From positions 1,459-65,458 of the forward strand of contig JAERTI010000055.1 of the NCBI GenBank assembly GCA_016844925.1: DNA of 64,000 nucleotides, in the 5' to 3' direction. This DNA comes from Candidatus Uhrbacteria bacterium. Lineage in GTDB: Bacteria > Patescibacteriota > Patescibacteriia > UBA9934 > GWF2-40-263. Of the stretch, positions 10,531 to 42,689 are shown one piece after another (positions within the stretch are counted from its first letter, which is position 1; each line of letters begins with the position of its first letter). The notes beneath the pieces were generated by a model. That model was given only the letters and a program-made list of their open reading frames with translations. It did no database searches and was not told the DNA's origin. The position numbers and the translations under genes were made by a program.

Positions 10531-10559
10531 AAAACACCCACCGCTCAGCGATGGGTGTT
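10531..10559. terminator. bidirectional Rho-independent terminator between the 136-aa gene and rplL
   Basis: ACACCCACCGCTCAGCGATGGGTGT hairpin followed by TTTTT on the plus strand and an A-run on the other side. Confidence 0.6.
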
Positions 10560-10576
10560 TTTAATTTGCTTGTTGC

Positions 10577-13917: not shown

Positions 13918-14271
13918 TTACGAATGTTGAGATTGTTTAATAAGCCAGTTGGTGGCGAGTGAGATTGCCCACAACATAAGTGCTGCAAGCAATGCGGGCA
14001 CAAACCCCTCAACCACAAACCCTTCTACGATCGTGGAGACAAGCCAGATCATAAAAGCGTTAATGACAAAGGTGAATAGACCGAGTGTAAGAATCGTGAC
14101 AGGAAGCGTGAGAATAAAGAACAGTGGACGCACGAGAGCGTTGGCGAGTCCGAGCACCAAGGCAGCGATCAAGGCGTTGTAGAACGTCTCGACGCCAAAA
14201 CCTGGCACCACATTGGCAACAATGATGAGCGCGATTGCATTGATGATCCACCGGAAGAGGATATACGCCAT
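13918..14271 (-). CDS. holin-4_2 / YvlD-like small membrane protein
   Basis: 117 aa, four hydrophobic helices, MAYILFRWIINAIALIIVANVVPGF.. resembles Phage_holin_4_2 / DUF360 family proteins. Confidence 0.5.
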   Translation of the reverse strand: MAYILFRWIINAIALIIVANVVPGFGVETFYNALIAALVLGLANALVRPLFFILTLPVTILTLGLFTFVINAFMIWLVSTIVEGFVVEGFVPALLAALMLWAISLATNWLIKQSQHS

Positions 14272-20118: not shown

Positions 20119-20607
20119 ATGGACGACGACCCAGCCCGCCGCGCGCAACGCTTTCCACTGCTGATCAAACTCGACGAAGACGGTATCGAGTTCACGCACT
20201 TCTTCAACCGCATGGGGCACGTTCGCCTCCCACCCCAGTTCCCCGACCCGCTCCAGAAGCGTGTCCTACAGCTGATCGAACGACTCATGGCTCTACAGAT
20301 CCAAGCCCTCCAGCTCATCCCCGATGAACTACCTCGCTACCAGATCAACGGCACCTGGTCCCCGCTCCCCGCCTCGCTCACCCCAGAGACAGAAGACACC
20401 CTCTTGCTGACTGCCTGGTGGATGGAGCTCGAGAGACGAAAGACCACCCGCCACGACGACTGGGACTGCCAGGAGTGCGGGAAGCTCGTCACACGCAAGC
20501 GTGGAATCTGCCAGAATCACGAATGTGTCTCGTGGGACATCCTCCACATCATCACGGGAGACCCTCATCTCCACCTCGTGCCCAAGACCGGCACAGACAA
20601 CGACTGA
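20119..20607 (+). CDS. hypothetical protein with C-terminal CxxC...CxxxxC zinc-ribbon-like motif (GC-rich)
   Basis: 162 aa, AGGAGA RBS. ..DWDCQECGKLVTRKRGICQNHEC.. No family recognised. Confidence 0.45.
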   Translation: MDDDPARRAQRFPLLIKLDEDGIEFTHFFNRMGHVRLPPQFPDPLQKRVLQLIERLMALQIQALQLIPDELPRYQINGTWSPLPASLTPETEDTLLLTAWWMELERRKTTRHDDWDCQECGKLVTRKRGICQNHECVSWDILHIITGDPHLHLVPKTGTDND

Positions 20608-20665
20608 CCCTCTTGAGGGTAACCTCTCCGATCTTACGTCGGAGTTTTTTCTTTATCCATTGACA
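20605..20665 (+). repeat. copy of the GACCCTC..GAGGGT terminator/-35 junction module (divergent copy)
   Basis: TGA-CCCTCTTGAGGGTA hairpin starting at the stop codon, a second hairpin CTCCG..CGGAG+T6, then TTGACA at 20660-20665. Same family as copies at 26907, 28507, 29149, 29526 and (minus strand) 41261-41291. Confidence 0.6.
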
Positions 20666-20767
20666 AAACACATAAAAAGCCCGTACGCTCCCATCGCTCA
20701 CACAAGAGGCAAGCAACTCCGCCCAACTCTTTGCACGCTCTAGGTGCTCGCGTGAGACAACAGGACC

Positions 20768-21901
20768 ATGGAACAGAGGCAGACCGCCTTGTTCGCCCCG
20801 CGGCTTCTCGTCGCATCCTTCATCATCCTCACGGGCGCTGCCTGCGGTGACCTCTCGGTCTCCGACACGGCGCTCAATGAGTTCGAGCACGCCGGTGGTG
20901 TGTGGGAAACGGACGATGGATTCAGCCACATCGTCTACGATGGCAACAGCTACGGCGACTCCATCACCGACTGCATGAGCACGGAGTACGACTTCGCCCT
21001 CATGTTCGGGGAGTGCTACGAGTACGCTTCCATCCCCTACGCCCTGGGCGCGGTGACGAGTGGCGGCACCATGGACGTGGAGAACCAGTCCACGGGCTCA
21101 TGGGCCACCATGGACGCCTCCAGCTTCCTGGACTTCAACGGCCTCACCCCCGGCATCGCCCGCGTGCTCTGCTACACGGACAAGCCGGAGGAGTACAAGG
21201 CCGACTGCGAGGTCGAGAACGACTACGACAGCTTCGCCCCGGACTTCTACATGGAGATCGACACGGGCGACTACAACACCATCACGGTCTACCGTGGCAG
21301 TGCCAGCAGCGGCCTGGGCGAAGTGTTCCTGGGCAAGGACGGCGACTACAACTGCGACGGCGTGGACACCCCGGACGCCACCGTGCGCCTGGTCCGCACC
21401 TCGCTGGCCTACGACAGCGCGATCATCGAGCTGCTGGGCGAAGGCGGTCACGTCACATGGCCCGAGTGCATGCCCGACGGCTGGTACGACGAGCCCGAGG
21501 ACACCGGCGGTGCCGGCGACACGGGTGGTGACACCGGCATGGCGGGAACCGGTGAGAGCGAGGAGGTTCAGAACTTCCAGTATCCACCGATGTTCTACAT
21601 CACGAAGATCAACGCCCTGTGGCAGGTGACGCCCCAGAGCCAGCAGGCCTACCAGGCCACGGCGGACAGCTTCTTCGAGGAGCACCACCCCGAGCTCTAC
21701 GGCAGCGACATCCACCTGTTCGTGATGCGCCGCATCGACGCGTACTTCACCGACGCCTCCACCCGCGTGTTCTACGACACCCTCCTGAACACCATGGACC
21801 TGGCCGTCGCGCTGGATCTGCAGGCCCCTGCGAACAAGATCTTCGGGCACTGGATCAAGAACTACCGCCACTGGGAAGCCAACCGACAGAACCCTTTCTA
21901 G
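20768..21901 (+). CDS. secreted lipoprotein (hypothetical, GC-rich)
   Basis: 377 aa. Signal peptide with lipobox (..ILTGAACG). Asp/Gly/Thr-rich. No known domain. Followed by terminator CCCTGACC-TACGAC-GGTCAGGG+TTTTTATTT (21907-21940). Confidence 0.5.
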   Translation: MEQRQTALFAPRLLVASFIILTGAACGDLSVSDTALNEFEHAGGVWETDDGFSHIVYDGNSYGDSITDCMSTEYDFALMFGECYEYASIPYALGAVTSGGTMDVENQSTGSWATMDASSFLDFNGLTPGIARVLCYTDKPEEYKADCEVENDYDSFAPDFYMEIDTGDYNTITVYRGSASSGLGEVFLGKDGDYNCDGVDTPDATVRLVRTSLAYDSAIIELLGEGGHVTWPECMPDGWYDEPEDTGGAGDTGGDTGMAGTGESEEVQNFQYPPMFYITKINALWQVTPQSQQAYQATADSFFEEHHPELYGSDIHLFVMRRIDAYFTDASTRVFYDTLLNTMDLAVALDLQAPANKIFGHWIKNYRHWEANRQNPF

Positions 21902-21984
21902 GAGGAACTCCCCCTGACCTACGACGGTCAGGGATTTTTATTTGTTTGGCATCAAAAAACTCAGGGAAAAACCCTGAGTGTTAC

Positions 21985-23751: not shown

Positions 23752-24315
23752 CTAAAATGCTAGTCCGAGCTGTGTCATGACCAGGTCAAATGACGGAGCT
23801 CCGAGAATCACGATCCCTGAAAGGATGGCGATCATGATGGAAAGCACAGCCACAAGCTTCTCTGCACGCATTGGAATGTGATCACAGTTTCGGCAAGTGC
23901 CAATGTACACAATCTTTCGATGCACCTCTACAGGCACAGGCTCGTGCGTCACCTTGCTCTCTGTGACAGAGACAATCGGTGCTTTCATCTCAATAGCCTC
24001 TTCCACAACCTGCTGTACCGTCTTTTCAATCTTTAACTCAACCGTCTGCTTTGCCACAGGCTTCTTGGCGACAGGTTTCTTAGCCGTCACCTTCTTAGCA
24101 ACAGGCTTTTTCTTCGCAACGGCCTTCTTCTTCGCCGCAGGTTTCTTTGCGGCGGTCTTTTTTGCGACCGGCTTCTTCGCAACCGTCTTTTTCTTTGCGA
24201 CAGGCTTCTTTGCTGTCACCTTCTTTTTTGCTGCAGCAGGTTTTTTTGCCGCAGGCTTTTTTGCAGCCGTCTTTTTCTTGGCAGCTGCCGATGGCGCCTT
24301 CTTTTTTGTCGGCAT
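23752..24315 (-). CDS. lysine/alanine-rich histone-H1-like protein with C-terminal TM anchor
   Basis: N-terminal ~100 aa of AKKPAAKKPVAKK tandem repeats, a short domain with ..CRNCDH.., then a C-terminal hydrophobic helix. Confidence 0.5.
   Translation of the reverse strand: MPTKKKAPSAAAKKKTAAKKPAAKKPAAAKKKVTAKKPVAKKKTVAKKPVAKKTAAKKPAAKKKAVAKKKPVAKKVTAKKPVAKKPVAKQTVELKIEKTVQQVVEEAIEMKAPIVSVTESKVTHEPVPVEVHRKIVYIGTCRNCDHIPMRAEKLVAVLSIMIAILSGIVILGAPSFDLVMTQLGLAF
24060..24300 (-). repeat. imperfect ~21-24-nt tandem DNA repeats encoding the KKPVAKK low-complexity tail
   Basis: Visible periodic ggcttcttcgc/ggcttttttgc units within the CDS. Confidence 0.6.
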
Positions 24316-24882: not shown

Positions 24883-25146
24883 ATACCCCCAGTATATCAG
24901 GAAACAAAAAATAGGGGGCTCGATGCCCTCTATTTTTTACTCCTCACCACCTCACCTTCCATTCGGTCCACCACGGCGAACGAGCGCTGGGACAATTTTG
25001 AGTCGGACAGTGTCCCTATAGATCTCAAAATTCGTACCAGCGATCGGTTCGCCCAGCCATAGCGAGACTACACGCCCCCATCTCGACAGGCTCGATGAGT
25101 ATTTGTCGAAGCAATCGAAAAGCCTCAAGTGTCTGCTTCACGAGCA

Positions 25147-26238: not shown

Positions 26239-26348
26239 AGCGACGACAGGATAACAGATGAGTACCCTACCTTCAATTGTTGACAACTCACAGGGAGCAA
26301 GGTGAAATGCCTCAGCCGCACACGATGTGACGGTAGAAAGGCCTCTCG

Positions 26349-26891
26349 ATGCCCCCTGCTCCTGCTCCCCCGTTCCTGACTCGACTCGACGCCTACAGCC
26401 TCTCCCAAGCCGAGAACATCCTCTTCCTGGGAAGCCTCTGGTTCCTGTTCATGAGCTTCCTCATGTTCGTGCAGCCGGGCCCTCTGGATCCGAAGCTGCT
26501 AATCGGCATGACCATCACGCTTCTGGCCGGCGTTGGACTTGGGTGCTGGAGCATCTGGTACCAGCTCACCGGCGAGCACAACGTGTACAAGAAGTTCATC
26601 ACCCTGTGTGAGGAGCAAAGGCTCCTGCAGCAAGGTGAAGAGCTCGCCGCCAGCTACGCGCAGATCAACAGACTCCGACGCATCTACAAGGAAGACACGA
26701 GCCTGTCTGAGACCATGGTGGCGCGCATGCTCAAGGACCTCGACCTCGAGGAAGAACTCCTCCGCGAAACGCAGGTGGCCCTCCACCTCAAGCAGGCGCC
26801 GCTCCTGCAACGAGCCTTCGAGGCAAGCCGCCACGCGTTCCCCTGGGAGAACTTCACCGAGACGGCCAAGCAACCCGCTGTGAGCACCTAG
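26349..26891 (+). CDS. 2-TM membrane protein with C-terminal coiled-coil (island cassette 1)
   Basis: 180 aa. RBS AGAAAGG 7 nt upstream. Two hydrophobic helices then a charged helical tail. GC-rich. Confidence 0.5.
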   Translation: MPPAPAPPFLTRLDAYSLSQAENILFLGSLWFLFMSFLMFVQPGPLDPKLLIGMTITLLAGVGLGCWSIWYQLTGEHNVYKKFITLCEEQRLLQQGEELAASYAQINRLRRIYKEDTSLSETMVARMLKDLDLEEELLRETQVALHLKQAPLLQRAFEASRHAFPWENFTETAKQPAVST

Positions 26892-26906
26892 CTCACGACG
26901 CCCACC

Positions 26907-26939
26907 GACCCTCACGCGAAGGGTCTTTTTCTTTTGACA
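26907..26939 (+). repeat. terminator/-35 junction module copy
   Basis: GACCC-tcacgcgaa-GGGTC, T5, CTTTTGACAA (TTGACA 26934-26939). 17 nt later TAACGT. Confidence 0.65.
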
Positions 26940-26991
26940 AAAGCTCTCAAAACTCCTAACGTCACCCCCTGCTCTTTCAAAGGAGACGCGG

Positions 26992-28509
26992 ATGGCAACG
27001 ACCAGACTCCGGTGGCTCAGCCGGTACCCAATCCCGGGAACAACTGGCCAGCTCATCGGTTCCAAAACAAACGGACTACGCCCTGCAGCAAACGCCTCAG
27101 GTGTGCTTTCAGAGCACATGTCCAACCACGTCCTGAAGAAAATCAATGGCGACCCAGAAGTTCTCGAAGAGATCCTCAGGGCCGTGGTCAACTACTCGGT
27201 GGCCGATTTCCAATGTGCCGCGCATGCGCGCACGGCCATCTTCCGGTGCCTGGTGCAAACGGGTGACAAGTACCTCACTCAACTAGACAGCCTGCTCACC
27301 AAAGCCCACAGGACCTTCTCCAGAATCCCCTACGCTCTGAACATGATCGGCTTCACTGAAGCATGCGGGTTCCGCTACGATCGCGTCGAGCACTACCTCA
27401 TGCTCATCGAAACCCTCGATACCTTCATGGCACGTGAGGTGGGGCCCTGGCTGCCACACGACGACAGACGGAAGCGACCTGCTTACGTTAGCGGTGCGGC
27501 CAAAGGCCTGTCAGAACAACTCGGTCTCGAACCAGGTTCTCTGAAAGCGCTCGGTAAGCCTCCGCTCAGACTTAGACCACGAACTCTCGCTCTAAGCTGC
27601 GAGCTTCACCTCACAGCGCCGGGCGTGAACGAGCTCATGCAGTACACCACGGCCGGCGGAATCGCCCTCACCCTCGGGGCCCTCTGGAGGACCGTCGATG
27701 CCATGCTCCACGCGGGCATGTCTTCCGGATCATTACGCAAGTTCGTCGAACGACTGAACGTCCCCATGCTTCGCTGGGCGCACCAATGCCTCCAAGCAGG
27801 CTCCATCGATCTCAAGATGGTTCGTGCACTACCCCAGCAGCCACTGGACTGGTACATCGCACAGAAAGACCTAAACCTAGACGTTCTCCCTGTGCTGAAA
27901 GCCTGGTCCGATGAAGGCCACCCCTGTGGGTGGAGTGAGTGGATCAAGTTGGGTGGTACCACAGACGCCTGGCAACAAGAGGCCAAAAGGCAGGAGCAGC
28001 GCAAACTCGAACGAGAAGCGCACTTCGCTCAAAAGCAGGCAGGGACAAAGCCGCCATCGCCGCGACCCAAACCAATCCCTACGGTGTCACCTGCGAATCA
28101 AACCCCCACGGGAAGAAAGCGACACCATCCTGGCCACAAAGCACAAGAGCAGACGCAGGAAATCAACTGGGGGGAGACTCTCGTGAATCTCGTAGAGATG
28201 GTTCAAAGCCACCTAGACGATGTTGATGACAATCTCTCCGCTGGAATCCTCCTCTCGCTCATCCGCTCGGGTGATCGCCTCATGCCACGGTCCCGCTGGC
28301 CCAAGATGAAACTCAACAAGCTTCGTCGAGAAGTGAAGCGGCTGGTCGACGGCGCAAGCAACCGTGAGATCAATGCCGCGCTTGGATCCCTAGAGGCCAT
28401 CCGCCTTGTCCGGCAGACCGCTGGCAAGTACCACATCTCCGAAACCACGCCGCGCCACACGGGCGCAGCCGAAATCCGCAAAAGGCTCATCAGCCTCTGC
28501 AGCTCCTGA
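26992..28509 (+). CDS. 505-aa hypothetical soluble protein (island cassette 2)
   Basis: RBS AAAGGAGA. No recognisable motif. Pro/basic-rich linker (..KPPSPRPKPIPTVSP..) between two helical halves. Confidence 0.5.
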   Translation: MATTRLRWLSRYPIPGTTGQLIGSKTNGLRPAANASGVLSEHMSNHVLKKINGDPEVLEEILRAVVNYSVADFQCAAHARTAIFRCLVQTGDKYLTQLDSLLTKAHRTFSRIPYALNMIGFTEACGFRYDRVEHYLMLIETLDTFMAREVGPWLPHDDRRKRPAYVSGAAKGLSEQLGLEPGSLKALGKPPLRLRPRTLALSCELHLTAPGVNELMQYTTAGGIALTLGALWRTVDAMLHAGMSSGSLRKFVERLNVPMLRWAHQCLQAGSIDLKMVRALPQQPLDWYIAQKDLNLDVLPVLKAWSDEGHPCGWSEWIKLGGTTDAWQQEAKRQEQRKLEREAHFAQKQAGTKPPSPRPKPIPTVSPANQTPTGRKRHHPGHKAQEQTQEINWGETLVNLVEMVQSHLDDVDDNLSAGILLSLIRSGDRLMPRSRWPKMKLNKLRREVKRLVDGASNREINAALGSLEAIRLVRQTAGKYHISETTPRHTGAAEIRKRLISLCSS

Positions 28510-28536
28510 CCCTCCTGAGGGTCTTTTTTCTTGACC
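28507..28536 (+). repeat. terminator/-35 junction module copy (stop codon included)
   Basis: TGA-CCCTCCTGAGGGTC-TTTTTT-C-TTGACC. -10 TACGGT 17 nt downstream. Confidence 0.7.
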
Positions 28537-28593
28537 AAGCCCTCCATCTCCCCTACGGTGGCCCTCCGGCGTACGCTGGTAAAGGAACGTACC

Positions 28594-29151
28594 GTGTCAC
28601 CACACCACACCCCTTTCGAGCAAAGAAAGGGGCCCACCTACTTCACCTACGACGAAGTGCTCGCAAAGAGCGACGTGCAGATCATTGCCCTGAGCCTGCT
28701 GATCCCCGTGATGTTTGGCGCTCTGGCAGCGGCCTGGATCTACTTCCCCATCCCAACCACCGCCCAAGACAACATCCCGCTCTTGGTGACCGCTGGCTTG
28801 ATCTCCTCGCTCTGCGCCGGAGGCATCGGCGTCTCGCGCCTCCTGCGCTTCGACCGCACGCTTCACGCCGTGCGAACAAGCGACGAGGGAAAGAGGCTCT
28901 TCAACCGAGGGAGCACCTTGGCCACACTCCACCAGGCAATCCTGAAGGAGGAGGAAGATAACCACTTTCCTCGAACCAAAGATTCCTTTGAAAAGCGCGC
29001 ACAACGCTACCTTGACCGCTGGACGTACTACATCTCGCAGGCCGAGGCGCTCCACCGAGAGCAGCACAACCTCCTCAAGCTCTTCTACCGAAACGAAAAG
29101 CAGCCCGATCCCTGGAAGGATCGATGCAACTGCCCCAAGTTCGGACTCTGA
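28594..29151 (+). CDS. 2-TM membrane protein with charged C-terminal tail (island cassette 3)
   Basis: GTG start 6 nt after AAAGGAA. ..IIALSLLIPVMFGALAAAWIYFPIP.. and ..LLVTAGLISSLCAGGIGV.. helices. Confidence 0.5.
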   Translation: MSPHHTPFEQRKGPTYFTYDEVLAKSDVQIIALSLLIPVMFGALAAAWIYFPIPTTAQDNIPLLVTAGLISSLCAGGIGVSRLLRFDRTLHAVRTSDEGKRLFNRGSTLATLHQAILKEEEDNHFPRTKDSFEKRAQRYLDRWTYYISQAEALHREQHNLLKLFYRNEKQPDPWKDRCNCPKFGL

Positions 29152-29179
29152 CCCTCCTGAGGGTCTTTTTTCTTTGACA
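29149..29179 (+). repeat. terminator/-35 junction module copy (stop codon included)
   Basis: TGA-CCCTCCTGAGGGTC-TTTTTT-CTTTGACAA. -10 TTAGAT 17 nt downstream. Confidence 0.7.
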
Positions 29180-29239
29180 ATTCAACAAATCAACGCTTAG
29201 ATACCGACGTCACAGCACGCGTGACAGAAAGGATGCTTC

Positions 29240-29518
29240 GTGAGCGAACAGAAGATTACCCCAGCTGCCCTGCGCACGGCCTTCAAGCAGTCCATCAGAA
29301 ACTCTCTGGTGGTGGCACTCATCCTGGTCATCTCCATGGCCGTTCTGAGATTCGGCGTCTCACCGGAACCCAACGCAGAGGCCCATGCAATCGTCCTGGG
29401 CTTTGCTGCGCTCCTGCTGGTGATCGTCCTCTGGCACATGATCGGCAACATCTTCTTCTACTGGACCCACCCCGTCCGACGCGCAGCACTCCCAGACCAC
29501 CAGGAACCCTCCTCCTGA
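29240..29518 (+). CDS. small 2-TM membrane protein (island cassette 4)
   Basis: 92 aa. GTG start 6 nt after AAAGGA (same RBS-to-start geometry as cassette 3). The overlapping 135-aa ORF in another frame reads through the terminator and is rejected. Confidence 0.45.
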   Translation: MSEQKITPAALRTAFKQSIRNSLVVALILVISMAVLRFGVSPEPNAEAHAIVLGFAALLLVIVLWHMIGNIFFYWTHPVRRAALPDHQEPSS

Positions 29519-29525
29519 CCACGCC

Positions 29526-29569
29526 GACCCTCCTGAGGGTCTTTTTTCTTTTCCGCAGAACCATTGACA
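29526..29569 (+). repeat. terminator/-35 junction module copy
   Basis: GACCCTCCTGAGGGTC-TTTTTT-CTTTTCC...TTGACA (29564-29569), 17 nt, TATATT (29587-29592). Confidence 0.7.
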
Positions 29570-29651
29570 TTTCAGTTAAAATGAACTATATTCTCGCTCT
29601 GCTTCATTTGTCATGGTGGAGCGGATGAACCCTACTGAAAGGAGACATGAC

Positions 29652-30491
29652 GTGAGGAAAATCCTCTTTCCCCTGCTGGTCGCGGCGGCCACGCTGCTCA
29701 CCGGCTGCTACGGAACGAACGTGGTCATCAACCCGGCGGAAGTCGGACGCGAGCTGAACCCCAGCGGGCTCAGCGAGACGATCCTCCAGCCGAGTTCCTT
29801 CAACCTCGACTGGTGCATGTACACCTGTCCGAAGCTGGTCCGCCTCGAGGTCGCCAAGGCCACCCGCGAGATCACCATCGAGCGCGTGTTCCTGCCCAAG
29901 AGCAACGTGGACCTCAGCGACGTCGAGATCGCGATGCAGTTCCGCGTCCGCCAGGACCAAGACTCCATCAACACGGTGTTCTCCGAGGTCACCCCGCAGC
30001 CCGCGGGTGTCGAGGACACCATGCTCATCTCCAACGAGATGATCTACGCCACCTACCTCGAGCGCATCGGCCCGGAGGCCGTGATCGAGGCGCTGCGTGA
30101 GTACACCGTCGAGGACGTGCTCTCCAACGTGGGCGAGATCGGCGCGCACTCGCGCGACATGGTCAACCAGCGACTGGGCGACAGCCCCGTCGAGGTGACC
30201 GAGCTCTCCTTCCCCAACGGCATCGGCGACCCGCCCGAAGAGGTCCTGGTGGCCAAGCGGCTGCTGTACGCGGTCGACGAGGAGAAGGCACGCGAGGTCA
30301 AGGCCCTGGAGGCCGAGCTCGCCGTGGAGGAGCAGCGCCAGGCCGTGCAGATGGCCCGCGCCAAGAACGACCTGGCCGTGGCCAAGGTGGTGGGCGTCCG
30401 CTACGACGTCTACACCGAGCTCAAGATCATGGAGCGCTTCGCCGAAGAAGAAGTGCCCCTGGGCTACATCCCCGGCGCCAGCGGCCGATAG
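29652..30491 (+). CDS. SPFH/band-7 (stomatin/prohibitin/flotillin/HflK-like) domain lipoprotein
   Basis: GTG start 7 nt after AAAGGAG. Signal peptide with lipobox LLTGC. ..SDVEIAMQFRVRQ.. and especially ..FPNGIGDPPEEVLVAKRLLYA.DEEKAREVKALEAELAVEEQRQAVQMA.. match the SPFH core including the DPPEEV hallmark. Confidence 0.7.
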   Translation: MRKILFPLLVAAATLLTGCYGTNVVINPAEVGRELNPSGLSETILQPSSFNLDWCMYTCPKLVRLEVAKATREITIERVFLPKSNVDLSDVEIAMQFRVRQDQDSINTVFSEVTPQPAGVEDTMLISNEMIYATYLERIGPEAVIEALREYTVEDVLSNVGEIGAHSRDMVNQRLGDSPVEVTELSFPNGIGDPPEEVLVAKRLLYAVDEEKAREVKALEAELAVEEQRQAVQMARAKNDLAVAKVVGVRYDVYTELKIMERFAEEEVPLGYIPGASGR

Positions 30492-30503
30492 AAGGAGAAC
30501 GAC

Positions 30504-30887
30504 ATGAACTTCCTCGGACTGATTTCCTTCCTGGTCTTCGTCGCCCTCCTGATCGGCGGCGGTCTCTGGGCGATCCGTCACTCCATCACCCGTGAGGAGG
30601 AGGACGAGCGGAAGATCTTCAAGTACGGTGGCTGGGTGGCCATCGCCCTGGGGGTGTTCATCACCCTGGGCGTGCTCAACAGCTACGGCAAGATCGACGC
30701 CCCCAACCCCCTATCCGCTCCCGAAGCCGAGATCTCCTCGGTTCCCGCGGAGCGCGCCGAACCCCGAGCCCCCACCTTCGAAGAGGACACCACTCCCTCG
30801 GAGATGGAGAAGGCGCGGGAGGATCAGCGCAAGTCGGTGGACGAGTTCACCGAGCACACGAGCAAGGACGACGCGACCGACGAGTAG
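30504..30887 (+). CDS. small 2-TM membrane protein, likely SPFH-partner (NfeD/YqiJ-like role)
   Basis: 127 aa. RBS GAAGGAGA. Two TM helices then an acidic tail. Starts 13 nt after the SPFH gene (operon). Confidence 0.5.
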   Translation: MNFLGLISFLVFVALLIGGGLWAIRHSITREEEDERKIFKYGGWVAIALGVFITLGVLNSYGKIDAPNPLSAPEAEISSVPAERAEPRAPTFEEDTTPSEMEKAREDQRKSVDEFTEHTSKDDATDE

Positions 30888-30902
30888 TCGCGCCCCTGCA
30901 CC

Positions 30903-30928
30903 CCTGGCCACACCGGTCAGGGTTTTTA
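30903..30928 (+). terminator. terminator after SPFH operon, with an adjacent convergent terminator for the minus-strand hydroxylase gene at ~30940-30965
   Basis: CCCTGG-CCACACCGGT-CAGGG+TTTTT. The second hairpin is CACCGC-tgcgt-GCGGTG with an A-run on the plus strand. Confidence 0.5.
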
Positions 30929-30966
30929 CATACAAAAAAATCACCGCTGCGTGCGGTGAGTTGCGT

Positions 30967-31851
30967 CTAGCCAGCGTCGGCGCGCTGGAAGGTTGCCCAG
31001 CGCCAGGGCGTGAGCCAGTGGGCGGTGAGCGTGGGCGGTATCTCGACGTCCTGCAAGCCAACTTGCTCGAGCTCTCGATCCTTGGGCAAGAACCGAGTGC
31101 CAAACACGATGTCCCACAGAATCAGGTTGCTGGAGAAGTTGGTGTTGGACTCCCCCATGACCTCACTGTGATGCCAGCGGTGCAAGTCGCACGTCGCCAA
31201 GATCCAGTTGAGCGGACCGAGGATCACGCGGATGTTGGCGTGCTGCATGCCACCGTTAATGGCCGTGAAGACACTGAACAGCACCAACGTCTGCGAACTC
31301 GCTCCCAGCAGGACCAGCGGCGCCACGGGCGCGAGGTACGTTGCCAGGAAGTTGATCGGGTGCAGGCGCGTGGCCGAGAAGAAGTACAGCTTGTCCGAGC
31401 TGTGATGCACCGCATGGATGCGCCAGAGCCAGTCCCACTTGTGCAGCGCGCGGTGCGCCCAGTAGAACCCGAAGTCGCCGATGACCAGCGCGAGCAAGAG
31501 CTCGAGCGAGAGTGGCCAGTGGTGTGGCCACAGGCTGCTGCCCGCCATCGCGGCCGCCTTCATGGATCCCCAGACCAGTGCACTGAAGCACACGGCCTGC
31601 ACTAGCGGCGGAAAGATCACCGCCGTGAAGATGAGATGCCAGAGATCCACCTTCACTTCACGGCGCCCTACGCGCCAGTCCTCTCGGTGCGGCATGCACA
31701 CCTGCACGATCATCACCGCCACCCCCGCCACAATGGTCGTGGCAAAGGTGATCAGCGTCTCGTCCACCCCCAACGTCAGCAGCGATCCAGCTGTGACCAG
31801 GGCGATCAGCAGAACTCCCGGGTACAGCGCGTGTTCAATCAGCTTCATCAT
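30967..31851 (-). CDS. fatty-acid hydroxylase superfamily protein (sterol desaturase / C-4 methyl-sterol oxidase-like), multi-TM
   Basis: Three histidine boxes in canonical order: HRALH, HAVHH, HRWHH. Four or more TM helices. GC-rich. Confidence 0.7.
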   Translation of the reverse strand: MMKLIEHALYPGVLLIALVTAGSLLTLGVDETLITFATTIVAGVAVMIVQVCMPHREDWRVGRREVKVDLWHLIFTAVIFPPLVQAVCFSALVWGSMKAAAMAGSSLWPHHWPLSLELLLALVIGDFGFYWAHRALHKWDWLWRIHAVHHSSDKLYFFSATRLHPINFLATYLAPVAPLVLLGASSQTLVLFSVFTAINGGMQHANIRVILGPLNWILATCDLHRWHHSEVMGESNTNFSSNLILWDIVFGTRFLPKDRELEQVGLQDVEIPPTLTAHWLTPWRWATFQRADAG

Positions 31852-31975
31852 TACCCCCTATCCGAGCCCGAGCGGCTCGAAGCCAGATTGTCACGCACAT
31901 GCGTGAGTGTCAATAAAGAGTTGACAAGCCCCCCTTGGGGCCCTAACCTCCAATCACCTGCGACTGGAGATTGAC

Positions 31976-32803
31976 ATGCAGAGAATCTTGGAGATTGCGC
32001 AGAAGGCCGCCAAGGCCGGCGGGCAAGAACTCGCCCGATTCCGTGGTGAGAGGATCGCCCTGGAGAAACGCACCAAGCTGGACGGCTCGGTGGTCACCGC
32101 CGCCGACGGTGCGGCTTCCGTCGTGATCCGAGATGTCATCCTGGCCCACGACCGCGACGCGTTCATCGTGGACGAAGAAGACCCGACCTCGCACGATCGC
32201 GAGCGCCCGGACCGCATGTGGGTCGTGGACCCCCTCGACGGAACCCGCACCTTCGCCAGCGGCAGGGATGGCTACTGCACCCTCGTCGGCTACGTGGTAG
32301 ATGGTGTCCCCCGCGTGGGAGTCATCTACTTCCCGGACACGAAGATCATCGTCTACGGCGGCAAGGGTCTCGGCGCGTGGATCGACGCCCCGTCGCTCAC
32401 CAGGCCCACCCGTCTTGCGGGATGGTCGCCTGAGGCCCTCGAGAACAGCAGGCTGTTCATCCCGGACAAGCCCGAGGCGCGTGAGCTCTACAAGCGCCTG
32501 ACCACCGCGCTGGGCACCAACCAGCTGGAAGGTCAGAACATCGCAGGGGCCATGTACCTGGCCCTGCTGCGCAACGCCTGCGAGTTCGTCATCACCCGCA
32601 TGGACAACCCGTTCATCTGGGACATCGCGGCCCCGCACGCCCTCCTGCTCGCCATCGGTGGCGACATCGTGAACCTACGCGGAGAGCCCATCGACTACCA
32701 GAGAACCACCCTGCTGGAGCACGGCACGATCGGAATGATCCACCCGCACCTCCTCCCCCAGATCCTCGAGCGTCTTCCCCCACTGGAACAGATGCGGATC
32801 TGA
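31976..32803 (+). CDS. inositol-monophosphatase family phosphatase (CysQ/SuhB-like)
   Basis: ..DGSVVTAADGAASVVIRDVI........FIVDEEDP.. and ..WVVDPLDGTRTFASG.. (WxxDP(I/L)DGT motif). Terminator CCGCCT..AGGCGG+ATTTTTG follows. Confidence 0.7.
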   Translation: MQRILEIAQKAAKAGGQELARFRGERIALEKRTKLDGSVVTAADGAASVVIRDVILAHDRDAFIVDEEDPTSHDRERPDRMWVVDPLDGTRTFASGRDGYCTLVGYVVDGVPRVGVIYFPDTKIIVYGGKGLGAWIDAPSLTRPTRLAGWSPEALENSRLFIPDKPEARELYKRLTTALGTNQLEGQNIAGAMYLALLRNACEFVITRMDNPFIWDIAAPHALLLAIGGDIVNLRGEPIDYQRTTLLEHGTIGMIHPHLLPQILERLPPLEQMRI

Positions 32804-32863
32804 ACGCCCCGCCTAAGGCCTAAAACCAAAGGCGGATTTTTGTTATCCACACCCAACCCTTGC

Positions 32864-32905: not shown

Positions 32906-32914
32906 AGCAAATCT

Positions 32915-36337: not shown

Positions 36338-36661
36338 ATGGTGAGAACCGCTTGGCTCTCGATCGAGCACATCGCTGTTTCTTCCAAGCAGCGCAAGAAG
36401 GTGTCCCCCAAGAAGGTGGAGAAGCACCGCAAGGCGTTTGAGGAAGACCGATTCGTCGAGCCCATCGACGTCGTGTCCTGCAGGACCGATGAGAAGGAGC
36501 GCTACCGCATCCTCGGCAACGGCCGTCACCGCTACTTCGGCGCGCTGGAAGCCGGCATGCCGCTCATCGAGTGCAAGATCCACGACTCGAGACACGAAGA
36601 CTGGGATACGCACAACCACCCCTCCGCCCCCCAGGGCGAGCGGGTGTTTTTCTTTTTTTAA
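36338..36661 (+). CDS. ParB/sulfiredoxin-like nuclease-domain protein
   Basis: 107 aa. ..VEPIDVVSCRTDEKERYRILGNGRHRYFGALEAGMP.. contains the ParB N-domain GxGRxR-type motif. GC-rich. The 3' end runs into a terminator hairpin plus TTTTTCTTTTTTT. Confidence 0.55.
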   Translation: MVRTAWLSIEHIAVSSKQRKKVSPKKVEKHRKAFEEDRFVEPIDVVSCRTDEKERYRILGNGRHRYFGALEAGMPLIECKIHDSRHEDWDTHNHPSAPQGERVFFFF

Positions 36662-36666
36662 AAATC

Positions 36667-37443
36667 CTACTCACCACCCACCTTCTTTATCCAGTTATCT
36701 AAATAAACTTTCACCTGATCCAGGCATCCTTGCTCTCGATATGAGTGACCAGCACCTGAAATAACATGAAGCTCTTTCTCTCCAGGAAGAACATCAAATA
36801 ATTTTTGTTGGTGCCTGGGGGGCGTACCTTCGTCTATCTCCCCAACAATAAGCAAAACGGGCATCGTGAGTTTCTTTGCGTCTTTCAGCAGGTCGTACTT
36901 AAGACGGTCTTCCATATGCGACCACGGGAGCCGCAGCTCAACACCAGGTTTTGATCTGCTCATCCGCGTCTGCCATCCTGTTTGCTTCCATTTATCGTCA
37001 TCCTCAGGGCGATGTGCCTCCTGAGACAACGCTCCGGAAATCACTGACGATATGGGGGCCAAGCCCATGATCTCTTCTGGGTGCTGCTCGGCATAGAGCG
37101 CCGTCGAGATACCTCCCAAACTATGCCCCACCAAAAAGAATGGAGCGCTGTACCAGTCTTGTGACTTCGACCAACTGATGACATCTTCAAGGTCGCGATA
37201 ATAACTCGTAATGGTCGCATCCTCATATCGTCCACCACTCTCGCCGATTGTATCTGCTGTGTCGAATCGAACTGTTGTAAACCCGTTATCTACAAAACAA
37301 CGTGCAAACATCTCGACATGCACCTGCTCCTTAAACCCACCAAGCCCATGCATCACAAAAGCAAGTCCACGAGATGCTTCGGGTTGCTCGATCACCACCG
37401 CAATCTTCTGACCTCTTCGATTCTCAATAAAAACCTTCTCCAT
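36667..37443 (-). CDS. alpha/beta-fold hydrolase
   Basis: ..FVMHGLGG.. (oxyanion HGxxG), nucleophile elbow GHSLGG, later Asp/His. Confidence 0.75.
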   Translation of the reverse strand: MEKVFIENRRGQKIAVVIEQPEASRGLAFVMHGLGGFKEQVHVEMFARCFVDNGFTTVRFDTADTIGESGGRYEDATITSYYRDLEDVISWSKSQDWYSAPFFLVGHSLGGISTALYAEQHPEEIMGLAPISSVISGALSQEAHRPEDDDKWKQTGWQTRMSRSKPGVELRLPWSHMEDRLKYDLLKDAKKLTMPVLLIVGEIDEGTPPRHQQKLFDVLPGEKELHVISGAGHSYREQGCLDQVKVYLDNWIKKVGGE

Positions 37444-41260: not shown

Positions 41261-41291
41261 AGTCAAAAGAAAAAGACCCTCGTCAAGGGTC
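41261..41291 (-). repeat. terminator/-35 junction module copy (minus-strand orientation)
   Basis: Minus strand reads GACCCT-TGACGA-GGGTC-TTTTTCTTTTGACT directly after the stop of the 461-aa GC-rich gene and 22 nt before uvrD. Confidence 0.6.
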
Positions 41292-41303
41292 TCGTGTGTG
41301 CAC

Positions 41304-42689
41304 CTAGAGCGGTGCGCAGGCCTTACGGAGCTCGTCCGTCATGCCCTCAAGGTCAGGCCCTCCGTCTGAGAGCTTGCGCATGAGATGCACGTCCGCCAGG
41401 TGAACGTGAGGGAACACGCTGGCACGGACCTTTCGTGCGAACCCGTCGTCCAGGAACGCCCTGGTCTCGGGAACCCGACGCGTGAGGCGTCGGTGGATGG
41501 CACGCAGATCATCATGCCAGGCGATCTGGCGAGAGTCGGCGACATCCTCTCTGCGATCGATGAGAATGGCCGCTTGCAGCAGAAGCTCTTCGAGCTGCCA
41601 GTGCAGATCTCGCAGCACCATGCCGTGGTAGCTCTGCATCAGCACGTCGCGTGAGCGGAGCATCACTGCGGCGGCAGCGTCTGCCCCCTCGCTTTTGGCC
41701 ACGTCAGCAGCCTCGCGCATGATCGCGGCAGCTTGGCGCATATTGCGCACGGAGTGCCGGAGCGACCGCACGAACGGCCGGGTCACGATCTGCTCGAGCT
41801 GACGTGCGTACTGCTCGAGTCGATCCGCCTCACGGCGGACCGTTGCGGTCGAGCGTACAGCTCCGTCGCCACCTGAGCGTCCACGCACCGGCAGCAGACG
41901 ATCATCGCCGAACAGCACCCTGGACTGCAGCCGGTGCAGCTGTGAGTTGCCGATCTGTCGACAGATGATGCGCAGGCGGTCGATGTAGACCTCCAGCACC
42001 ACCTCGCGGAAACTGATACGACGCGTGATGCCTCGCACCGTCTGGATCCGCTCAGCGAGATCCTTCTGCCCAGCGAAGATGATGAGCGGAATGCGCCCCG
42101 GGTTGAACCGGCCCAAGGAGTCCTTGAGCTTGCCAGCCTGGATCGCACGCGCCAGCGCTGCCACCTTGTTCTCGTCGATGACGCGACCATGAGCATCCAG
42201 CAGCGCAGCGGCCACCAGGACGTACTCTTCACGCCCATCTTCCTCCAGGAGATGAAGCGTCCAGGACGTCTTGACCATCCAGTCGAAGGTCTCGTCCCAG
42301 CTCGCGAGAGCCGGAAGCTCGACGTGCTTGCCACGCGTTTGCGCATGCGCCATCCCGCGGCGCGCCTTGTAGACGCTCTCGTACGAGATGAAACACTGCT
42401 GCGCGTAGGTCACCTTCTCTACGCCATTGAGGCGCTCGGACACCCTGAGGTTCCGAGAGAGAATGCGACCGGGCTCCAGCTCCTTGATGCCCTTGAGGGC
42501 CTCGATGCTGTGCGCCGGCACCTCGTAGAGGCAGTGCGGCACGAGCTCGATCAGAGCGAAGTCCTTCACCTCGAGCGGCGGCGGCTTCTTGCCCTTGCTG
42601 GGCCTCTTGCGCAGAAGCTTGAAGCTGCGCTTGATGACGACCAGGTTGAGTGGATCCGGCCACTCGAACGGGTCACGGTAATGAGCCAC
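41304..42689 (-). CDS. 461-aa hypothetical protein (GC-rich insertion upstream of uvrD)
   Basis: GTG start 7 nt after AGAGGAG. A TTGACA-17-TATTTT promoter sits upstream. No family recognised. Arg-rich helical C-terminal half. Confidence 0.5.
   Translation of the reverse strand: MAHYRDPFEWPDPLNLVVIKRSFKLLRKRPSKGKKPPPLEVKDFALIELVPHCLYEVPAHSIEALKGIKELEPGRILSRNLRVSERLNGVEKVTYAQQCFISYESVYKARRGMAHAQTRGKHVELPALASWDETFDWMVKTSWTLHLLEEDGREEYVLVAAALLDAHGRVIDENKVAALARAIQAGKLKDSLGRFNPGRIPLIIFAGQKDLAERIQTVRGITRRISFREVVLEVYIDRLRIICRQIGNSQLHRLQSRVLFGDDRLLPVRGRSGGDGAVRSTATVRREADRLEQYARQLEQIVTRPFVRSLRHSVRNMRQAAAIMREAADVAKSEGADAAAAVMLRSRDVLMQSYHGMVLRDLHWQLEELLLQAAILIDRREDVADSRQIAWHDDLRAIHRRLTRRVPETRAFLDDGFARKVRASVFPHVHLADVHLMRKLSDGGPDLEGMTDELRKACAPL

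Follow-up and report, generated by a model that had tools for sequence, protein, structure and literature searches.

The interval between metK (minus strand) and lexA in the stretch of DNA analysed here (64,000 nucleotides of contig JAERTI010000055.1, referred to below as the window) holds a GC-rich group of eight genes, at 26290-32830, whose borders repeatedly show the same short hairpin, T-run and promoter-like sequence. Based on analyses of this junction and comparisons to sister strains and deeper relatives, we propose, with rather more conviction than doubt, that this is an accessory islet, variable between strains, in a chromosomal interval prone to gain and loss, and that it represents an array of autonomous moron-like units, which would have been duplicated and then remodelled by recombination at the junctions, in addition to the transfer of an operon encoding an SPFH lipoprotein. 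The region departs from its surroundings in composition, carries repeats, differs between strains with breakpoints at the junctions, shares synteny with relatives, encodes genes under purifying selection and includes a foreign SPFH gene pair. The window as such is ordinary chromosome, with glycolysis genes, ribosomal proteins, EF-Ts, RF-1, UvrD, dinB, exonuclease VII and QueA, of what is probably an uncultured lineage of the Patescibacteria (or CPR, for Candidate Phyla Radiation). The best match of its metK among GTDB representatives (CPR and other metagenome-assembled genomes) has 53% identity, in keeping with a sparsely sampled, Patescibacteria-like lineage; this is too distant for a comparison of the locus.

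The islet and its recurrent junction

The GC content (1-kb windows) is 0.57-0.65 at 26-33 kb, compared to ~0.47-0.53 in most of the window, and GC at third codon positions (GC3) is likewise raised, to 0.67-0.94 in the eight genes of the region vs 0.45-0.63 in the housekeeping genes metK, lexA, enolase, PGK and EF-Ts. Hence, the rise in GC that the original prediction had noted by eye is real, and neither GC nor GC3 is uniform with the backbone. The prediction also listed the genes correctly. Downstream of a predicted promoter-like site that is divergent from metK (TTGACA-17 nt-TGAAAT, 26280..26308, plus strand), the first unit encodes a 180-aa protein of an orphan family with two transmembrane (TM) helices (26349..26891, plus; predicted TM 23-41 and 51-69), followed by a soluble 505-aa orphan protein that is specific to the window strain (26992..28509, plus), a 185-aa 2-TM protein (28594..29151, plus, with a GTG start at 28594) and a 92-aa 2-TM protein (29240..29518, plus; predicted TM 22-40 and 50-68). 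Next are the strain-specific, moron-like SPFH operon insert with its two genes, an SPFH lipoprotein and a 127-aa partner (29561..30935, plus), a fatty-acid hydroxylase (FAH) convergent with the array (30967..31851, minus; Pfam PF04116, E 2.7e-29; terminator at 30941-30959), and an inositol-monophosphatase (IMPase) family gene, which is the final GC-rich gene before lexA (31976..32803, plus; PF00459, E 3.7e-35). As FAH is located on the minus strand, the array is not uniformly tandem, in disagreement with the earlier description. The signature is not confined to this region either, with two more GC-rich patches at 19-22 kb and 41-43 kb (1-kb windows) and further copies of the junction module at 20606 (plus) and 41275 (minus).

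The recurrent junction consists of a hairpin, GACCCT-loop-AGGGTC, then T5-6 and then CTT(T)TGAC. The 16-mer GACCCTCCTGAGGGTC is present in exactly three exact copies, at 28508, 29150 and 29526, and at up to three mismatches it has 9 matches vs 0.63 expected, a number reached by 0 of 100 shuffles. Junction j1 (26907..26939, plus) is formed by GACCCT-CACGCGA-AGGGTC, T5 and CTTTTGACA, with a -10 element, TAACGT, at 26957; it has a 7-nt loop, folds at -9.2 kcal/mol and lies 15 nt past the TAG stop of the 180-aa gene. In j2 (28507..28536, plus) and j3 (29149..29179, plus) a TGA stop overlaps GACCCTCCTGAGGGTC, with T6 followed by CTTGACC and a -10 element, TACGGT, at 28554 in the former, and by CTTTGACA and a -10-like TTAGAT at 29197 in the latter. 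Finally, j4 (29526..29551, plus) comprises GACCCTCCTGAGGGTC, T6 and CTTTT, i.e. a terminator only, without its own -35. Within a 31-nt repeat family of 87-100% identity, the best three copies agree without mismatch for 25 nt, and j2 and j3 for 27 nt; the recurrence of three near-identical copies is thus real, with an identity of 25 nt and not 31 as first described.

The 6-bp stems at j1-j4 fold at about -9.1 to -9.3 kcal/mol and are followed by a U-tract, and all module hairpins fall between -9.1 and -12.2 kcal/mol, in agreement with the pattern of an intrinsic (Rho-independent) terminator, a GC-rich stem-loop just past the stop codon on the coding strand. At j1-j3 the T-run passes into CTT(T)TGAC(A/C), which places the -35 hexamer 7-8 nt past the stem. 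All five predicted promoters (180-aa gene, j1, j2, j3 and SPFH operon) have a spacer of exactly 17 nt between -35 and -10, and AAAGGA(G) is found 6-8 nt before the start codons of the genes that follow the junctions. The promoter layout proposed earlier therefore stands in its spacing and its ribosome-binding site (RBS), the latter at 6-8 nt rather than 6-7 nt, whereas the TTGACA at 29564 lies outside the module: it is the own -35 of the SPFH insertion and is absent, with that insertion, from the sister strains. As judged from these motifs, the units probably possess both promoter and terminator activity. The module closes only four genes (180, 505, 185 and 92 aa) rather than five, as the terminator of the 127-aa gene differs (CCCTGGCC..GGTCAGGG), and those of IMPase and FAH are unlike either.

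Outside the region, the module follows two further GC3-rich genes (0.77 and 0.79). At 20605..20621 (plus), an orphan gene of 162 aa ends in a TGA that overlaps the hairpin GACCCTCTTGAGGGT, directly 3' of which begins a swap between a 377-aa and a 476-aa gene; at this site (20606) the sister strain carries the complete module, with hairpin, T5 and CATTGACA. At 41261..41293 (minus), GAGACCCTTGACGAGGGTCTT, a T-run and CTTTTGACT (-12.2 kcal/mol) lie 3' of a GC-rich orphan gene of 461 aa (41304-42689, also minus), with the ATG of uvrD only 23 nt away. In total, six module copies are present in 64 kb, all in terminator orientation behind GC3-rich accessory genes, and the direct arrangement of hairpin, T-run and TTGAC occurs within the window only at 26926, 28524, 29166 and 41274 (minus). 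The backbone terminators of the window are unrelated in sequence, and the module is therefore not the generic terminator of the genome, a possibility raised with the original prediction and rejected here for this window. In public data, the hairpin sequence itself is commonplace: a degenerate pattern matches more than 120 unrelated viral contigs, once in each, and a 21-nt pattern matches six unrelated metagenome contigs, each with a single terminator. As a lineage marker in such data, the module is uninformative.

A second terminator type is shared by the 377-aa unit (21912-21933, CCCTGACC..GGTCAGGG) and the SPFH operon (30902-30922, CCCTGGCC..GGTCAGGG). A tandem repeat of the arm of the main module (GACCCTGACCCT) includes the arm of this second type, and the two terminator families may reflect a common source or a common sequence bias.

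Encoded proteins and variation among strains and relatives

More than ten independent sister contigs, with DNA ~92-95% identical to the window, were retrieved through exact-protein look-ups from ENA, JGI and Logan assemblies. They display a single haplotype, metK / 180 / 181 / ~185 / 92 / FAH (minus) / IMPase / 200-bp repeat / lexA, which differs from the window in three whole units of the GC-rich islands. Window positions 26940-28505, with the 505-aa gene and its upstream terminator and promoter, stand in for a 593-bp segment encoding 181 aa in sister contig L082; homology is lost right after the stop of the 180-aa gene, and it restarts at CTGACCCTCC of j2 (28506). The SPFH operon (29561-30935) is missing from all sister contigs, in which the convergent FAH terminator directly follows j4. 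The third difference is at 20621-21950, where the 377-aa gene replaces a sister 476-aa gene with a left breakpoint directly 3' of the 20606 hairpin. This 377-aa cassette (20621..21950, plus) is strain-specific, has a GC3 of 0.91, and is equipped with a 5' hairpin, T-run and TTGACA as well as the terminator CCCTGACC..GGTCAGGG at 21912. The presence/absence polymorphism between sister genomes that the original prediction had asked for is consequently found, as 181->505, SPFH insertion and 476->377. An assembly chimera was rejected, since separate assemblies from ENA, JGI and Logan contain the flanks of the islands as well. Translocated sister-specific cassettes were not found in the window, nor the reverse.

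The breakpoints of all three differences lie in or next to terminator junctions: 10 nt on the 5' side of j1, inside j2 (its left arm or loop), immediately 3' of the hairpin at 20606, past the T-run of j4 and within the A-run that belongs to the FAH terminator. They share no fixed position relative to the hairpin and are not restricted to the module. At 36650-37443, moreover, a 258-aa alpha/beta-hydrolase gene (GC3 0.49) takes the place of a sister 198-aa methyltransferase gene (GC3 0.41; L082 18278-18874), with breakpoints in the T-run of an unrelated terminator and at the neighbouring gene boundary, and cassette-scale replacement hence extends beyond both the GC-rich units and the module.

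Nucleotide mismatch to the sister strain changes from unit to unit, with 2.0% in the 180-aa gene, 10% in the 185-aa gene, 2.9% in the 92-aa gene, 3.8% in FAH, 0% in the FAH-IMPase spacer, 10.6% in IMPase and 4.9% in metK, and the region is therefore a recombination mosaic. The terminator of the 180-aa gene (26897-26925 vs L082 ~10549-10575) has kept its loop, CACGCGA vs CACACGA, and differs in its stem, GACCCT/AGGGTC vs CGCCC/GGGCG in the sister, though the adjacent gene is 98% identical; this terminator was swapped along with the unit that follows it. Junctions j2, j3 and j4 of the window are the same, and the corresponding sister j2' differs in loop and T-run, which hints at either homogenisation or import of j2 with the 505-aa unit. 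Separately, a patch of 21-35% mismatch with flanks of 1-5% is present in the 185-aa gene (28881-29030), where it maps past the second TM helix; it may be either a small recombination tract or the result of diversifying selection.

The orphan proteins have no family match in Pfam, PHROG or PADLOC, and a sub-threshold match to BrxB (E 0.005) was disregarded. The 505-aa protein retrieves only itself among 5.8 billion proteins, as a singleton cluster, and its single-sequence AlphaFold2 model has a pLDDT of 40, while the 185-aa protein retrieves only the sister orthologue among 1.84 billion representatives, plus one spurious match to a repeat protein. For the 505- and 461-aa proteins, no viral relatives were found. 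Compared to the sister strain, dN/dS of the orphan genes is 0.11-0.24 (0.24 for the 180-aa and 0.19 for the 185-aa gene), demonstrating that these are real genes under purifying selection; the 92-aa gene has a value of 0.58, on few changes, and backbone genes mostly 0.00-0.08, with the exception of DUF4015 (0.25).

The sister 181-aa protein matches the 185-aa protein at 1e-5 over 135 aa in BLASTP, and when an alignment of these two is compared to the 180-aa protein by hhalign, the match covers the C-terminal half of the latter (E 3.9e-4, probability 36%). All three have the motifs RGS.LA, ALH.EQ..LL and PW in common, as well as the same architecture of two TM helices plus a helical tail; the 92- and 505-aa proteins have no detectable relation to them. 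The ancestral array thus comprises three diverged tandem paralogues (180, 181 and 185 aa) and an unrelated 92-aa gene, in agreement with the cassette duplication suggested in the original prediction.

The SPFH operon is composed of a predicted promoter (TTGACA-17-TATATT, 29564-29592), the SPFH lipoprotein gene (29652-30491, 279 aa; Pfam Band_7, phrog_200), the gene of the 127-aa 2-TM partner (30504-30887) and its own terminator, CCCTGGCC..GGTCAGGG, at 30902-30922, with a GC3 of 0.94 and 0.88 for the two genes. Homologues of the SPFH protein display 41-64% identity, and the pair of SPFH and ~125-aa genes is kept in the two contexts examined, L217 (64% identity) and L218 (53%), which are larger genomes that do not look like CPR. 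Since the pair is conserved in such unrelated large genomes, the operon has clearly been acquired horizontally. A role of the membrane proteins in the cell envelope or at the host interface is a guess.

Two syntenic relatives were reached via FAH homologues. In L229 (metK 87% aa identity; locus GC 0.49) the order is lexA / FAH / 92-like gene / metK, where the 92-like gene is a 54% identical orthologue beside metK that ends in GACCCTCACGAGAAGGGTC and T6, which has the stem of the module and a loop that differs by one base from that of window j1. In L231 (metK 77%) it is lexA / FAH / IMPase / metK, without 2-TM genes and without the module, and this IMPase is non-orthologous, with only 30% identity to that of the window. 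The FAH orthologues adjoining lexA are 71% (L229) and 65% (L231) identical. The interval between DUF4015 and RNase_H_2 in L231 encodes homologues of the 162-aa protein (37%) and of the sister 476-aa protein (35%), and the contents of both this and the metK-lexA interval differ among the window, the sister strains, L229 and L231. Consequently, FAH, the 92-aa gene and its terminator stem are old residents, and the two intervals are long-standing sites of gain and loss. The GC3 of FAH is 0.53 in L231 (2902-3777), 0.66 in L229 (3454-4365) and 0.85 in the window, while that of the backbone remains at ~0.45-0.6; this gradation across syntenic relatives means that the GC signal is not simply readable as recent import. 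It could be explained by recombination-linked GC enrichment or by xenologous replacement. The same GC3 tendency was observed for the GNAT gene.

Several neighbouring features deserve mention in their own right. A dispersed intergenic repeat of ~170-200 bp, REP200, has a single copy in the window, between metK and a 150-aa gene (24900-25103), with sister copies at L082 5269-5467, 8550-8762 and 14150-14352 and at L213 1057-1221, i.e. at least four in ~45 kb. It starts with a bidirectional terminator hairpin, in which stem changes are compensatory, and continues with a nearly invariant core of ~85 nt. Three sister copies are found at borders of GC-rich islands, directly 3' of a TTTTTTCTTTATC tail, and sister contigs often break inside REP200. 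In a comparison with L229, most differences in the core are at third positions of a single reading frame (peptide ANERWDNFES), and Rfam matches are at chance level; it may therefore encode a small peptide rather than an RNA. A histone-H1-like HC2 family gene (23752-24315, minus) with 15-18-nt periodic, lysine/alanine-rich repeats is conserved in L229, and such a protein is unusual outside Chlamydiae. A 117-aa ORF matching Pfam Phage_holin_4_2 (13918-14271, minus; E 1.5e-32) is present in otherwise housekeeping surroundings. Lastly, an insert of ~70 nt with many TAGC/TAGCTA repeats is found in sister strains ahead of the lexA start codon, past the region of the LexA box (L082 14450-14525), and is missing at window 32908-32914.

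Proposed origin and competing explanations

We propose that the islet has arisen in the following manner. In each unit, a promoter of the sigma-70 type, with a spacer of 17 nt, and an AAAGGA(G) RBS would precede a single ORF, or two in the case of SPFH; a short intrinsic terminator would follow, with a 6-bp stem that would often overlap the TGA stop and a U-tract that would abut the -35 of the next unit. A unit with a 2-TM gene would have been duplicated in tandem, yielding the 180-, 181- and 185-aa paralogues and thereby the repetition of the junction, and this presumably took place beside an older 92-aa gene whose terminator already bore the module stem. The junction copies may then have been held alike through recombination or gene conversion. 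Identical junctions of 25-27 nt, as well as other A/T-rich terminator spacers, would tolerate breakpoints, allowing whole units to be swapped, inserted or lost (181->505, 476->377, gain of SPFH). Such recombination could be of the RecA type or illegitimate, inside the genome or following DNA uptake, and would not involve a dedicated cassette recombinase. Both the duplication as the source of the repeats and this mode of recombination are what we infer from sequence comparisons.

Several observations weigh against this proposal. It is derived from a 64-kb window of one genome and from two haplotypes, the window strain and the sister strains. The coding sequences of the paralogues are ~24% identical, yet three junctions are identical over 25 nt, and simple duplication is therefore insufficient without gene conversion or selection. 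Furthermore, hairpin, T-run and CTTTTGAC also follow unrelated genes (162 and 461 aa) at two unlinked loci, and the TTGAC at 41261-41293 is unusable as a -35 (TTGACT 23 nt from the uvrD ATG), suggesting that a unit of ~31 nt was copied as such. The TGA is also found at one fixed position of the module in four genes (505, 185 and 162 aa, and sister 181 aa).

In agreement with these points, the module could be a small mobile or copied element similar to repetitive extragenic palindromes (REP) or miniature inverted-repeat transposable elements (MITE), possibly moved by a REP-associated tyrosine transposase (RAYT) or another HUH enzyme, which lands 3' of genes and brings along a stop, a terminator and a -35. 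Such an element would account for the ~31-nt unit including CTTTTGAC behind unrelated genes at three unlinked loci, for the TTGACT at 41261-41293 that cannot act as a -35 at 23 nt from the uvrD ATG, and for the overlap of TGA and hairpin at one position in unrelated ORFs. The lineage holds another dispersed repeat, REP200, and ~1 module copy per 10 kb resembles the density of REP in E. coli. However, no Y1/HUH transposase is encoded in the window, the six copies are found only behind GC3-rich accessory genes and never in backbone intergenic regions, and clustered or inverted copies as in bacterial interspersed mosaic elements (BIMEs) are lacking. The presence of the stem at the orthologous L229 site, moreover, fits inheritance over insertion, and we consider this explanation unlikely. 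A single recent lateral import of the whole GC-rich block, from one GC-rich donor with similar terminators that would render the repeats meaningless, is likewise improbable. The GC3 of 0.67-0.94 vs ~0.55, the many orphan proteins, the clearly foreign SPFH pair and the annotation of source-named deeper FAH homologues as Myxococcota, Polyangiales or Deltaproteobacteria are all compatible with such an import, but synteny of FAH and the 92-aa gene extends to genus-level relatives of ~49-50% GC, and the GC3 of FAH is graded, 0.53/0.66/0.85. In addition, the units diverge very unequally from the sister strain, three of the proteins are mutually paralogous, and strain differences go unit by unit. Of the laterally acquired membrane module put forward in the original prediction, the SPFH pair consequently remains, whereas recent import of the whole block is not supported, given the synteny of FAH and the 92-aa gene in L229.

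The original prediction had also called the architecture integron-like. In such a platform, the hairpin would serve as the site at which a site-specific recombinase captures and shuffles promoter-bearing cassettes. Indeed, the units are bounded by one hairpin, whole units vary between strains with breakpoints at or near hairpins, and sister assemblies often break at unit borders. Yet no integrase, transposase or other recombinase was detected in a Pfam scan of the ORFs of the window (nearly all non-overlapping ones of at least ~100 aa and several shorter, with no such match among the scanned ORFs of >=97 aa), and precomputed Pfam annotation of ~20 kb of sister and relative loci also lists no integrase or recombinase. 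Features of attC are equally absent: the module is a perfect stem of 6-7 bp with a 2-7-nt loop, 16-19 nt in total, with a T-run after it and no GTT core, and the 16-nt perfect hairpin has neither the length nor the bulges and R/L core sites of attC. The breakpoints are scattered (5' of, inside and 3' of hairpins, after T-runs and in unrelated terminators) instead of marking a fixed crossover, the SPFH insert is not placed between two module copies, and only two alleles were observed per slot. Thus intI, attC, promoterless cassettes (each unit has its own predicted promoter) and a fixed crossover are all lacking, the integron reading was rejected, and a platform of this kind is very unlikely. 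We attach equally little probability to the idea that the ~31-nt module is a recombination signal for a hairpin-recognising enzyme encoded elsewhere in the genome and acting in trans, in a system of promoter-carrying cassettes that would spread orphan genes among chromosomal slots of a CPR lineage. Other anchors and origins were also discarded. The window has no tRNA gene and no Rfam family, which excludes an island anchored at a tRNA or non-coding RNA, and a phage or plasmid origin was rejected as there is no DNA match and the SPFH lipoprotein (phrog_200) is the only PHROG match.

It is conceivable, too, that a dimeric regulator controls the accessory genes jointly by binding to the 16-bp inverted repeat, which would then act mainly as an operator and be conserved in sequence through selection on protein binding, as the perfect palindrome GACCCTC-CT-GAGGGTC is centred ~17 nt upstream of three -35 hexamers and its sequence identity exceeds the needs of a terminator. 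No promoter is present at that spacing after sister j4 or after the 20606 copy, though, and the loops vary freely (CCTG, CTTG, CCCCG, CACGCGA and TGAC), changing the distance of the half-sites in a manner suited to a stem. These two aspects make an operator role unlikely, and since the U-tract always follows in gene orientation as well, we regard this as a highly improbable main function. Moron-like units remodelled at their junctions, as outlined above, hence remain the explanation we favour.

Significance and relation to known systems

Patescibacteria of the CPR have tiny genomes and depend on other cells, and little is understood of the ways in which they acquire and try out new envelope genes. 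The locus provides a sequence-level example of single transcription units that are swapped, added and duplicated between strains of ~93% identity; the units mostly encode lineage-restricted orphan membrane proteins, and the swaps take place at compact junctions without mobile-element genes. A high GC3 is not necessarily a sign of recent import in islets of this kind, as the GC3 of FAH rises stepwise across syntenic relatives, and recombination-linked GC enrichment represents a testable idea. Should the junction be an active recombination signal, it would constitute a new cassette system and a new kind of gene-capture platform.

Compared to integron arrays, the islet is similar in its tandem, mostly single-gene units, in the hairpin that recurs between them and in strain variation at the level of the cassette. 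It differs in the absence of IntI, attI and a fixed crossover, in cassettes that carry predicted promoters, where those of integrons mostly lack one and depend on a common Pc, and in a hairpin of 16 nt that is perfect, whereas attC is an imperfect palindrome spanning ~55-140 nt, has core sites R''/L''-L'/R' (GTTRRRY) and includes extrahelical bases. REP and BIME palindromes can terminate or stabilise transcripts and, as is the case for the module, are short, GC-rich and found 3' of genes at unlinked loci. Unlike these, the module has few copies in the 64 kb, in one orientation and at accessory genes only, and includes a T-run and a -35, and window scans detected no RAYT (Y1_Tnp). Rho-independent terminators in general share the GC-rich stem of 6-9 bp, the 3-7-nt loop and the U-tract at 0-25 nt from the stop, but lack what sets the module apart, a single stem sequence that recurs six times in 64 kb, each time behind a GC3-rich accessory gene, with 25 nt fully identical in three of the copies.

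Phage morons are independent promoter-gene-terminator units between genes, which have deviant GC and are additional to what related genomes contain (Cumby, Davidson & Maxwell 2012, PMC3594210). In the islet, too, each unit has its own promoter and factor-independent terminator as predicted from sequence, the GC is off that of the neighbours, the SPFH operon and the 377-aa unit are located between genes that are adjacent in the relative, and the cargo is often a membrane protein or lipoprotein. In contrast to morons, the islet resides in a housekeeping chromosome, not a phage or prophage, with no phage genes nearby, and several units have one common junction and several cargo genes are paralogous. 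Minimal mobile elements or replacement flexible islands (Saunders & Snyder 2002), in the account of them given in PMC3787668, are variable genes between conserved flanks, without mobility genes, that are exchanged by homologous recombination, and many genomic islands have been described in Patescibacteria (PMC12455944). The islet agrees with these elements in that its gene content varies between conserved flanks without mobility genes, and its mosaic divergence is consistent with recombination. It deviates in that individual transcription units of an array are what is exchanged, and in that the nearest shared sequences are the 25-31-nt junctions rather than flanking genes. As it stands, the locus is a variant of known flexible-island dynamics.

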